DNA from: Enterobacteria phage ID18
Direction: 5' to 3' (one strand)
Sequence record: NC_007856.1
DNA length: 5,486 nt
Positions 2,556-5,486 of the stretch are shown here, in pieces. The position numbers and the translations under genes were made by a program. Below the pieces are notes generated by a model. That model was not told the origin of the DNA. It did not search any database and saw only the letters and a program-made list of their open reading frames with translations. Each line of letters begins with the position of its first letter. The stretch's first letter is position 1.

Positions 2556-3836
2556 ATGTCTAACGTACAAACTTCCGCTGAACGTATTCCGCATGACCTC
2601 TCACATCTGGTATTCGAAGCTGGTAAAATCGGACGCCTTAAAACTATCTCCTGGACTCCTGTTGTCGCTGGTGATTCTTACGAAACTGAAATGGTAGGCG
2701 CTATTCGTCTTTCTCCTCTCCGTCGTGGTCTGGCTGTCGACTCTCGCGTCGACGTCTTTACTTTCTATATCCCTCATCGTCATGTCTATGGTCAACAATG
2801 GATTGACTTTATGAAGACTGGCGTTAACGCTACTCCTCTGGCTCCGGTAACTTGTTCCTCTGGCTGGGATTCTGCTGCCTATCTTGGCACTATCCCGTCA
2901 ACTAATTTGAAGGTTCCTAAATTCCTTCATCAATCTTATCTCAATATTTACAACAACTACTTTAAGCCGCCGTGGTCTAATGACCTCACCTATGCTAACC
3001 CATCTAATATGCCCGCTGAGGATTACAAATGGGGCGTTCGTGTCGCTAACTTAAAATCTATCTGGACCGCGCCCCTTCCTCCTGATTCATTAACTAAGCA
3101 GGATATGACTACTGGCGCTACCACTATCGATATTATGGGCCTACAAGCTGCCTATGCTAAACTCCACACTGAACAGGAACGTGACTATTTCATGACTCGC
3201 TACCGCGATATTATGAAAGACTTTGGCGGTCACACCTCCTACGACGGTGATAACCGTCCTCTGCTCCTGATGCGCTCTGAATTTTGGGCCTCTGGCTATG
3301 ACGTCGACGGTACTGACCAAACTTCATTGGGTCAGTTCTCTGGTCGCGTCCAACAAACCTTTAATCATAAAGTGCCTCGCTTCTATGTTCCTGAGCATGG
3401 CGTAATTATGACTTTATCTGTTACTCGCTTCCCTCCTACTCACGAAATGGAAATGCACTATCTCGTCGGTAAGGAATCTCTGACTTATACTGACATTGCC
3501 TGTGACCCTGCTCTTATGGCTAACCTGCCTCCGCGTGAAATTGAGGTAAAAGACCTCTTTCACTCTGCTGGTACTGGTAAATTCAAAATTGCCGAAGGTC
3601 AATGGTATCGTACTCAGCCTGACCGCGTTGCCTTCCCTTATAACGCTCTTGACGGCTTCCCTTTCTATTCTGAACTGCCGTCTAATGATATTCTCGAACG
3701 TGTACTTGTTCGAACTGATAACTATGATGAAATCTTCCAGTCTATGCAACTTGCACACTGGAACATGCAAACTAAATTTAACACTACTGTATATCGTCAT
3801 ATGCCTACCACTCGTGATGGCATCATGACGTCATAA
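2556..3836 (+). CDS. F: Major capsid protein F (426 aa)
   Basis: AAGGA at 2545-2549, 6 nt before the ATG. The product is collinear with phiX174 F along its full length (MSN.QT.AER.PHDLSHL, RLSPLRRGLA.DS, IDIMGLQAAYA.LHT.QERDYFM.RY, GTDQTSLGQFSGRVQQT, LPPREI, FKIAEGQWYR, TTRD.IMTS). Confidence 0.95.
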   Translation: MSNVQTSAERIPHDLSHLVFEAGKIGRLKTISWTPVVAGDSYETEMVGAIRLSPLRRGLAVDSRVDVFTFYIPHRHVYGQQWIDFMKTGVNATPLAPVTCSSGWDSAAYLGTIPSTNLKVPKFLHQSYLNIYNNYFKPPWSNDLTYANPSNMPAEDYKWGVRVANLKSIWTAPLPPDSLTKQDMTTGATTIDIMGLQAAYAKLHTEQERDYFMTRYRDIMKDFGGHTSYDGDNRPLLLMRSEFWASGYDVDGTDQTSLGQFSGRVQQTFNHKVPRFYVPEHGVIMTLSVTRFPPTHEMEMHYLVGKESLTYTDIACDPALMANLPPREIEVKDLFHSAGTGKFKIAEGQWYRTQPDRVAFPYNALDGFPFYSELPSNDILERVLVRTDNYDEIFQSMQLAHWNMQTKFNTTVYRHMPTTRDGIMTS

Positions 3837-3845
3837 AACAAAACG

Positions 3846-3881
3846 TTGAACGGGTACAAATTTTAATTTGTGCCTGTTCAA
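3846..3881 (+). other. F-G intergenic imperfect hairpin (about 13-bp stem including G-T/G-U wobble pairs, AT-rich loop)
   Basis: 3846-3858 (TTGAACGGGTACA) pairs with 3869-3881 (TGTGCCTGTTCAA) around the loop AATTTTAATT. It sits in the 92-nt F-G untranslated region, which in phiX-like phages holds the post-F terminator and complementary-strand priming signals. Confidence 0.4.
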
Positions 3882-3928
3882 GGTTGAACAAGCGAAGCGC
3901 GTTAGCTAACTTACTTAAGGAAATTCTC

Positions 3929-4462
3929 ATGTTTCAAACTTATCTCTCTAAACATAATTCTCCGTTAACTTCTCTGTCTATTACTGCTACAAAAACACCT
4001 GCGGCTGCTGCTCCGATTATTTCTACACCGGAGCTTAGCCGCTCTACTATTTTCGCTGGCTTAACTCTGACTGCTGCCACTACTCATTCTGGTGTCGCTC
4101 ATGTCGTTCGTATTGACGAAACCAATCCTACTGACAATCAGGTCTTATCGGTCGCCGCTTCTTTATCTGGCGTACCGTCTGATGCTATTGCTATTGCTAT
4201 TCGCTTTGAGGTCGCTGACGGTACCGTCCCTACTGCTCTCCCTGCTCTCTACTCTGCTTATCCGGTGGAATTCTTCACTTCTGGCGCTGCTCTGTCTTGT
4301 AAGGATGCCGTATCTATTCCGACGCATCCTGTTACTGCTGGTAATGATGTATATGCTGGTATTCTTATCTGGTCCAAATCTTGGTCCGCTGGTGTCGTCT
4401 CCGGCCTCTTATCTGTTAATCAGGTAAACCGTGAAACTACCGTACTCCAACCTCTTAAATAA
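3929..4462 (+). CDS. G: Major spike protein G (177 aa)
   Basis: ATG at 3929 preceded by TAAGGA at 3916-3921. The product begins MFQTYLSKHNS (phiX174 G begins MFQTFISRHNS) and ends ...SLNQVNRETTVLQPLK (phiX174 ...SLNQVIKEIICLQPLK). The track ORF starts at an upstream TTG (3884) and is over-extended. Confidence 0.88.
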   Translation: MFQTYLSKHNSPLTSLSITATKTPAAAAPIISTPELSRSTIFAGLTLTAATTHSGVAHVVRIDETNPTDNQVLSVAASLSGVPSDAIAIAIRFEVADGTVPTALPALYSAYPVEFFTSGAALSCKDAVSIPTHPVTAGNDVYAGILIWSKSWSAGVVSGLLSVNQVNRETTVLQPLK

Positions 4463-4472
4463 GGTCTAATCT

Positions 4473-5486
4473 ATGTTCGGTGCAATCGCTGGCGGTATCG
4501 CCTCCTCTCTCGCTGGTGGACTCCTGAACAAAGCATTCGGGGGCGGTTCTTCCGCTCCCCAATCTGGCGTTCAAGGTAATGTCCTCGCTACTGACAATAA
4601 TGTAATCGGTGCTAATGATGCTGGTATCAAATCCGCTATTCAGGGTTCTAATCCTCCCAATGGTCAACAAGCTGCTCCCAATGCTATATCGGGCGTTCTT
4701 GCCGATACTGGCAAAGACGCCCTATCTTCAATCACTGGCGCTGGCGTTAATAAACTTATGGAAAAAATCGGACTCTCTAAAGATGCTGCTGCTAAAGGTA
4801 AGGATACGAAAGATTATCTTGCTTCTGCGTTCCCCGAACTCAACCCGTGGGAACGTGCTGGCGCTGGTGCTTCTTCTGCTGGAATGGTTGATGCGGGATT
4901 CCAAAACCAAAAGGAATTAACTCGCATGCAGCTTGACAATCAAAAAGAAATCGCTAAGATGCAAAACGACACTCAAAAGGATATCGCTGGTATCCAGTCT
5001 GTTACTTCTCGGCAAAATACTAAGGACTCTGTGTATGCTCAAAACGAAATGCTCCAATACAACCAAAAAGAATCTATGTCACGCGTTGGCGCTATTCTCG
5101 AAAACACAAGCCTCACCAAACAACAACAAACTTCTGAAATTATGCGGCAAATGCTTACTCAGGCTCAAACCTCAGGTCAACACTTTACAAATGACCAAAT
5201 CCAAGAACTTACTCGAAAGGTCGGCGCTGATATTGATGCTGTTCGTGCTAACACTGAACGTACACATGTAGAAACGGACCGCTCTAAGCAGGAGGTCCAA
5301 AACTCTCGTTACGCTTCCTCACAAGTCGGTAAAACCGCCAAGGATGTATCAAATGTCATTAGTGACGCATCTTCTGGTATTGTTGATTATTTTCGTGGCG
5401 TTGATAAAGCTGTCGCGGATACTTGGAACAATTATTTCAAAGATGGCAAATCGGATGGGATAAGCTCAAACCATCGTACCAAATAA
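4473..5486 (+). CDS. H: Minor spike / DNA pilot protein H (337 aa)
   Basis: AAGG at 4461-4464, 8 nt before the ATG. The product is collinear with phiX174 H ([132 protein letters not shown]). Stop TAA is the last three bases of the window. Confidence 0.93.

Follow-up and report, generated by a model that had tools for sequence, protein, structure and literature searches.

The F-G intergenic spacer of the G4-like phage ID18 is probably a complementary-strand origin of the phiX174 type

G4 and phiX174 are the two textbook models of how a first primer is made on single-stranded phage DNA: primase acts alone in G4, and a PriA primosome is used in phiX174. Shlomai and Kornberg (1980) reportedly located the n' effector of phiX174 on a 55-nt fragment of the F-G spacer that contains a 44-nt hairpin. 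On SSB-coated phiX174 DNA, the primosome assembly site (PAS) is a hairpin at which PriA, PriB, PriC, and DnaT load DnaB (PMC5778457, PMC8246471), and a substitution in the F-G spacer, T2305G, was described as lying "within the primosome binding site" in an experimental-evolution study (PMC3606162). According to a 2026 saturation-mutagenesis preprint, the hairpin of the phiX174 terminator T_F (5' stem at nt 2308 to 2326) overlaps ori(-) and is a PriA binding site; mutations in both stems of a short hairpin at nt 2353 to 2373 were detrimental, and many 5' stem mutations raised laboratory fitness (bioRxiv 10.64898/2026.07.25.740675). In the G4 record, the F-G spacer is 136 nt long and has three hairpins, with the primer RNA at 3970 to 3997, the complementary-strand origin at 3998, and a single-stranded CTG start site at 3996 to 3998, directly 3' of stem-loop I. 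This origin module is well conserved among G4, WA3, and ID12, which have it in the F-G spacer, and alpha3, which has it in the G-H spacer.

The window analyzed here is the whole 5,486-nt sequence of Enterobacteria phage ID18, the complete circular genome of a G4-like microvirus (Bullavirinae, Gequatrovirus). Its nucleotide identity is 98.4% to WA14, 97.5% to EMCL318, and 82% to 85% to ID2, ID204, WA3, ID8, and ID12, and the IMG/VR entry UViG_638275834 is base-for-base identical to it. Gene limits were taken from the WA14 annotation (F, 2556 to 3836; G, 3929 to 4462; H, 4473 to 5486). A first-pass annotation of this DNA had described the 92-nt F-G spacer as the largest untranslated region of the genome, and its limits proved right: F ends with the TAA at 3836, G starts at 3929, and the H-A, J-F, and G-H spacers measure 58, 39, and 10 nt, respectively. 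An Rfam search of the F-G spacer gave no match at E ≤ 1. The features of the spacer are listed in Table 1.

Elsewhere in the genome, positions 1301 to 1400 (A/B overlap) and 2251 to 2400 (D/E region) are closer to phiX174 (identity, 0.76 to 0.87) than to G4 (0.64 to 0.80), a departure from the rest of the genome that mosaicism or unusually strong conservation could explain. Gene G (3951 to 4350) is by far the most divergent gene, with identities of 0.60 to 0.68 to ID2, ID204, and the G4 type and 0.99 within the WA14/EMCL318 group, and gene H and a portion of gene A show far greater similarity to ID2 than to G4. Such a gene-wise pattern of divergence points to a recombinant history and possibly to differences in host range.

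Table 1. Sequence features of the ID18 F-G spacer, with positions in the window
Feature	Position	Strand	Basis and remarks
F-G intergenic spacer, 92 nt	3837..3928	+	From the F stop codon TAA (3834-3836) to the G start codon ATG (3929-3931); sequence and WA14 annotation
Long hairpin, 44 nt	3842..3885	+	Folds, covariation, and covariance-model match; counterpart of phiX174 nt 2308-2351 (PriA site / ori(-) / T_F hairpin)
GTTGAAC direct repeat, 5' copy (second copy, 3883-3889)	3845..3851	+	5' copy only in the WA14-type stem; 3' copy within the conserved block
Invariant upper stem and loop, AAATTTTAATTT	3858..3869	+	Same in every phiX-type spacer examined; alignments
Sole CTG of the spacer	3874..3876	+	Inside the 3' arm of the long hairpin; sequence
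Near-invariant 3' block, GGTTGAACAAGCGAAGCGCGTTAG, consensus GGTTGAMCAAGCG(C)AAGCGCGKTAG	3882..3905	+	Alignments
Short second hairpin, AAC(3887-3889) aa GCG(3892-3894) AAG CGC(3898-3900) GTT(3901-3903)	3887..3903	+	Counterpart of phiX174 nt 2353-2373
Perfect 10-nt palindrome GTTAGCTAAC	3901..3910	+	Sequence; comparison with ID2-type spacers
Putative ribosome-binding site of gene G, AAGGA	3917..3921	+	7 nt before the ATG at 3929; position conserved in alignments with G4 and phiX-type spacers

The long hairpin has a main stem of 16 contiguous pairs (3846 to 3861 with 3866 to 3881; 14 Watson-Crick and 2 G.T pairs) closed by the loop TTTA at 3862 to 3865. Below the stem, a G3845.G3882 mismatch is followed by the pairing of AAC (3842 to 3844) with GTT (3883 to 3885), giving 19 pairs over 44 nt in total. 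The stem-loop of about 13 bp previously proposed at 3846 to 3881 is real, being predicted in both DNA and RNA folds, but its size had been underestimated. The 44 nt reported for the hairpin of Shlomai and Kornberg agrees with the geometry computed in ID18. As DNA, the spacer folds with -16.7 kcal/mol (z = -3.9; none of 200 shuffled sequences was as stable), and as RNA it folds with -28.6 kcal/mol (z = -4.4). The hairpin is the longest local inverted repeat of the 5,486-nt genome, and the 92-nt segments that include it are the most stable folds of the genome (-20.3 kcal/mol versus a mean of -7.2 and a standard deviation of 3.3). The structure belongs to the plus strand, which is packaged and has the same sense as the mRNA, since the reverse complement folds about as well as shuffled sequence (z = -0.95 for the minus strand versus -3.9 for the plus strand). 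A structure prediction for the single-stranded DNA, which the first-pass annotation had proposed as a check, thus gives a stable 44-nt hairpin on the plus strand.

In a distant blastn search, matches of the phiX174 group extended across the whole spacer (ID18 positions 3773 to 3960), whereas those of G4 and ID11 ended at 3842. The genome-wide identity profile showed the same: identity to G4 is 0.75 to 0.95 in coding regions and falls to 0.45 to 0.51 in the spacer, and identity to phiX174 reaches 0.70 to 0.75 in the spacer, no lower than in the neighboring F sequence (0.60 to 0.67). An alignment of eight spacers (ID18, WA14, EMCL318, ID2, ID204, Lilledu, Lilleput, and phiX174) contains the loop block AAATTTTAATTT without change and the 3' block nearly so. 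A covariance model trained on phiX174, Salmonella phage PJNS002, ID2, and one metagenome contig, with ID18 and its close relatives left out, matched ID18 full-length at 3840 to 3907 (85.3 bits; E of about 4.5e-20), and the same model gave nothing at E ≤ 10 in five G4-type and eight alpha3-type sequences. The spacer is thus homologous to phiX174 nt 2306 to 2373.

The two hairpins, phiX174 nt 2308 to 2351 and ID18 3842 to 3885, have equal geometry, both being 44 nt long with the AAC, the G.G mismatch, 16 stem positions, and the TTTA loop. The loop block AAATTTTAATTT shows no difference between the two phages, and the 3' block GGTTGAMCAAGCGAAGCGCGKTAG, which includes the GCGAAGC hairpin, is nearly identical. 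Most middle and lower stem positions differ but are compensated (TTGAACGGGTAC in ID18 and CCGAAGCGGTAA in phiX174). One difference that counts against a phiX174-type assignment is in the 5' arm, which reads GAACGGG in ID18 and GAAGCGG in phiX174. The spacer had been annotated as a candidate complementary-strand priming site and/or post-F terminator, with the mechanism left unclear and alignment to the G4 and phiX174 spacers suggested as a check; the end-to-end homology to the phiX174 spacer supports that candidacy and settles the choice for the phiX174 type.

Stem versions were collected from the phage collection, IMG/VR, and one metagenome scan. Five were found (WA14 type, ID2 type, Lilleto type, PJNS002 type, and phiX174 type), and all keep the AAC, the G.G mismatch, the 16 stem positions, and the TTTA loop. 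In the alignment of these lineages, which are only five in number and from which the structure itself was derived, 98.4% of cells are paired and 10 of the 25 pairs change on both sides, a result reached by none of 500 shuffles. For the helix of the long hairpin alone, 9 of 19 pairs changed on both sides. When the partners were shifted by 1 to 3 columns as a control, pairing dropped to 33% to 49%. In addition, a CG insertion in the Lilleto 5' arm pairs with the CG that bulges from the ID2 3' arm. Because the mRNA is of viral-strand sense and G.T/G.U pairs are tolerated in the stems, such covariation could arise from selection at the RNA level alone, on a terminator or on mRNA stability. The conservation of pairing in nature sits awkwardly with the fitness gains of the phiX174 5' stem mutants in the laboratory.

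The IMG/VR search added one new spacer sequence. The metagenomic microvirus IMGVR_UViG_3300045988_000056 (L026 / L007, 5,580 nt) has a WA14-type spacer with one substitution (AGTTAAC for AGCTAAC). Its F protein is 93% identical to that of ID18, and the first ~30 nt of its gene G are closer to G4 than to ID18; the contig exceeds the ID18 genome by 94 nt, either through a terminal overlap or through a genuine difference in length. Of the 13 matches in the metagenome scan with the 3' block, only two (L027 and L039) are microviruses; the other 11 were discarded as unrelated, mostly GC-rich sequences that share a 20- to 21-mer by chance. Nine soil metagenome contigs (L028 to L032, L034, and L036 to L038), unrelated to microviruses, have the 21-mer GGTTGAACAAGCGGAAGCGCG in common, with a conserved GC-rich hairpin (CAGGAGCCGGCTCCGCCGGCTCCTT) upstream and an apparent lysine/arginine-rich coding region downstream. 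This 21-mer is a conserved element that matches the search pattern by chance.

The second, short hairpin had gone unnoticed in the first-pass annotation. It contains the mini-hairpin motif GCGAAGC at 3892 to 3898; its GCG/CGC core is predicted to fold in ID18, and the full form is predicted for PJNS002. The closing pair of this hairpin (pair 51-66 of the alignment) covaries, being A-T in ID18 and ID2 and C-G in phiX174 and PJNS002. The GTTGAAC direct repeat, which had been noted before together with alternative pairings, is present, and its copies extend to AACGTTGAAC and AAGGTTGAAC. The alternative pairing of GTTCAA (3876 to 3881) with 3884 to 3889 is possible too, but with the 5' arm held single-stranded it yields only -5.7 kcal/mol compared with -16.7 kcal/mol for the main fold, and neither the 5' GTTGAAC copy nor the alternative pairing is conserved in the ID2-, PJNS002-, and phiX174-type spacers. 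We therefore rejected the repeat and its alternative pairing as a functional switch. In ID2-type spacers (ID2, ~3899 to 3912), the arms of the palindrome are split by a 4-nt loop (GTTAG-CTGC-CTAAC), and a third small hairpin is predicted; the ID18 palindrome GTTAGCTAAC cannot fold in this way because the 4-nt loop is missing.

On the strength of structure, covariation, and homology, the ID18 F-G spacer is probably the ortholog of the phiX174 complementary-strand origin, that is, an n'/PriA primosome assembly site. Homology does not prove activity, because the determinants of PriA recognition in a PAS are poorly defined and largely structural. By analogy with phiX174, the 44-nt hairpin (3842 to 3885) and the GCGAAGC hairpin (3887 to 3903) would stay folded on the infecting, SSB-coated viral plus strand and be recognized by PriA. 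PriB, DnaT, DnaB-DnaC, and DnaG would then join to form a mobile primosome that primes the complementary strand. With such a site, ID18 would not use the G4 mechanism, in which DnaG alone acts at a CTG beside the three-hairpin origin. Since the mRNA has the sense of the viral strand, the transcript beyond gene F forms these hairpins too, and in RNA their probable role would be that of a weak T_F terminator or a 3' stabilizer, as in phiX174.

This double setting raises the main alternative, namely that the hairpins act only in RNA, as the post-F terminator T_F and/or as a 3' protection of the F mRNA, and that priming takes place elsewhere or without a dedicated site. In phiX174, T_F is assigned to the counterpart hairpin, and intrinsic terminators are placed at four sites, among them the F-G spacer; the ID18 long hairpin is very stable as RNA (-28.6 kcal/mol; z = -4.4), the aligned stems include G.U-compatible wobble pairs, and strand specificity cannot separate the DNA from the RNA level because mRNA and viral strand share one sense. 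A transcript hairpin orthologous to that of phiX174 T_F is indeed present downstream of gene F, as seen from the RNA fold, the alignment, and the covariance model. However, neither ID18 hairpin is followed by a T/U tract, the long one being followed by GGTTGAAC and the short one by AGCTAACTTACTT (TTTTCTGCTT in phiX174), and a scan of the spacer with a terminator consensus found no terminator-like site. A classical intrinsic terminator was rejected on these two grounds. Furthermore, a plain terminator would leave unexplained the invariant 12-nt loop block and the 24-nt 3' block, which are kept among lineages that differ by 30% to 35% in the flanking F sequence. Alpha3-like phages, whose origin is elsewhere, have just a simple 14-nt GC hairpin and a T-run in the F-G spacer, and the phiX174 counterpart of the ID18 hairpin has been described as a PriA site. 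We thus regard an exclusive RNA-level role as unlikely, and an additional one, as a weak terminator or an RNA 3' hairpin, as probable. Even in phiX174, T_F stops only 20% to 40% of transcription (RNA-seq; bioRxiv 10.1101/2020.03.05.979765). With no T-rich tract behind its short hairpin, the ID18 spacer looks like a weaker terminator than that of phiX174.

Two further terminator-like elements were seen among these genomes. The alpha3-like F-G spacer is ~33 nt long in alpha3 and similarly short in seven IMG/VR genomes (L011 to L017), in which a GC hairpin followed by a T-run (GGGGCTTCGGCCCCCTTT) lies about 20 to 45 nt after the F stop codon, with a covarying GGGCC/GGCCC variant in L012; this element is a plain terminator where other clades carry an origin. 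In the ID18 H-A spacer, a terminator-like hairpin, GCCTCCAAATCAACGGAGGC, is found on the plus strand at 31 to 50 and is followed by TTTTCT; it is probably the counterpart of phiX174 T_H. The 3' arm of this hairpin contains GGAGG, a possible ribosome-binding site for gene A. The start of gene A is at 29 in the mechanical open reading frame and at 59 in the WA14 annotation.

It is very improbable that the spacer is instead a shortened and divergent G4-type origin primed directly by DnaG, with the long hairpin standing for stem-loop III and the GCGAAGC hairpin for stem-loop I. The genome is G4-like, and a forced alignment does set the long hairpin at the position of G4 stem-loop III; the mini-hairpin motifs GCGAAAGC and GCGTTAGC occur in hairpin I of the G4, St-1, and alpha3 origins (PMC13037366) and can be compared with the GCGAAGC of ID18. 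However, the context of GCGAAGC at 3892 to 3898 is identical to that in phiX174, which is PriA dependent, and not to that in G4. Direct alignment revealed no counterpart in the ID18 spacer of G4 stem-loop II or of the ACTGCAAAGCC segment with the priming CTG, and the sole CTG of the spacer (3874 to 3876) is not placed like the single-stranded priming CTG of G4 because it is paired inside the long stem. An nhmmer profile of the origin module (G4, WA3, ID12, and alpha3) detected G4 (E = 1.7e-48) and alpha3 (E = 5.7e-37) but nothing at E ≤ 10 in ID18, ID2, or phiX174, and identity in the spacer is 0.45 to 0.51 to G4 versus 0.70 to 0.75 to phiX174. We therefore rejected a degenerate G4 origin, the profiles, the identity profile, and the covariance model showing no real homology behind the forced alignment. 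The first-pass annotation rightly remarked that the spacer falls short of the length expected for G4 (92 versus 136 nt), and the reason is that the primase-origin module of G4 is wholly absent rather than shortened. Homology to the G4 primase origin in another region of the genome, which that annotation had named as an observation that would speak against its proposal, was likewise looked for: profile and BLAST searches of the ID18 genome gave no convincing homology to a G4-type origin elsewhere.

The only notable match was an exact 13-mer in gene G, CCGTCCCTACTGC at 4224 to 4236, which equals the 3' arm of G4 stem-loop I plus the CTG; it was considered as an origin and judged a coincidence. 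On the plus strand at 4217 to 4236, the palindrome GACGGTACCGTC followed by CCTACTGC resembles a miniature stem-loop I and start site. This stretch encodes the conserved peptide D-G-T-V-P-T-A, and G4 gene G has TTCCTACTGC at the homologous site; the palindrome is broken in WA14, and the motif is missing in ID2. Given the coding context and the lack of conservation, the 13-mer is probably a chance match.

Equally hard to credit is some other route, either priming by RNA polymerase at a promoter-like hairpin, as in the filamentous Ff phages, or a site in the H-A spacer, with the F-G hairpin uninvolved: the priming signals of single-stranded DNA phages are diverse, the H-A spacer has also been connected with second-strand synthesis in work on phiX174, and the upper stem of the long hairpin is AT-rich, but a promoter scan of the spacer found no promoter-like match, the spacer is homologous to the phiX174 PAS and to nothing else, and the conversion of single strands to replicative form (RF) in the phiX174 group is rifampicin resistant.

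A phiX174-type priming site in a G4-like genome bears on how the two signals evolved. In neighbor-joining trees of F, A, and G, rooted on alpha3 (an assumed root), the phages with a G4-type origin (G4, WA3, and ID12) group together as a single subclade within the G4-like clade. Spacers of the phiX type occur in the WA14 and ID2 groups as well as in phiX174, which is the next outgroup, and the divergence of the ID18 spacer from phiX174 is proportional to that of the flanking genes. With few, recombining genomes and an assumed root, the simplest reading would be that the phiX-type site is ancestral to phiX174 and the G4-like phages and that the primase-origin cassette replaced it once, in the G4 subclade. 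On balance, we lean slightly toward a view in which the G4-like phages comprise two classes with respect to the first step of replication: the G4 primase origin would be derived, a cassette that took the place of an ancestral PriA-type site in one subclade (G4, WA3, ID12, ID11, and others) and that sits in the G-H spacer of alpha3-like phages, while the WA14/ID18, ID2, Lilledu, and PJNS002 lineages keep the phiX174 type.

If this is correct, phages in or next to the species "Gequatrovirus G4" need PriA, DnaT, DnaB, and DnaC to form the parental RF, unlike G4 itself. The G4 mode of replication should not be assumed for the whole genus. The dependence of the WA14-, ID18-, and ID2-type phages on these host factors is a testable prediction. 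On the two-class view, PriA would read a PAS at the positions that do not vary in nature: the G.G mismatch, the loop AAATTTTAATTT, and the GCGAAGC-containing 3' block. The data indicate that the two priming signals are interchangeable modules within one spacer and that the phiX174 signal is present in a sizeable part of the G4-like clade. A full-text literature search, which did not reach some earlier papers, found none that remarks on the phiX-type spacer of WA14 or ID2. The kind of element is already known and its importance is moderate; what makes it noteworthy is that genome type and origin type do not match and that natural lineages provide covariation data for a PriA site (five stems, an invariant loop, and an invariant 3' block), which complement the deep-mutagenesis map of phiX174.

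Among known systems, the primosome assembly sites of plasmids (the n' sites of pBR322 and ColE1) are, like the phiX174-type site, hairpin-type, PriA-dependent priming signals on single-stranded DNA. They share short AAGCGG-like motifs, which the AAGCGAAGCG block of ID18 resembles, but we know of no overall homology, and their setting is a plasmid lagging-strand origin, whereas that of the ID18 site is a phage genome. The G4-type origins (in the F-G spacer of G4, WA3, and ID12 and in the G-H spacer of alpha3, St-1, and phiK) and the ID18 site are viral-strand, non-coding clusters of hairpins between late genes, in the case of G4 even in the same spacer. Both have a mini-hairpin motif of the GCGNNAGC/GCGNAGC type, and both presumably keep SSB off the DNA. 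However, the ID18 site shares no sequence homology with these origins, it has two hairpins instead of three and no exposed CTG start site, and its predicted host factors are PriA, PriB, DnaT, DnaB, and DnaC rather than DnaG alone. The closest counterpart is the PAS of phiX174 at nt ~2301 to 2373, which lies in the same spacer and on the same strand. Compared with it, the ID18 stem is free of internal A.G/G.A mismatches, and the ID18 spacer lacks (i) 18 nt found in phiX174 ahead of the hairpin region and (ii) the TTTTCTGCTT tract after the short hairpin. The genome that carries the ID18 site is G4-like and not phiX174-like.
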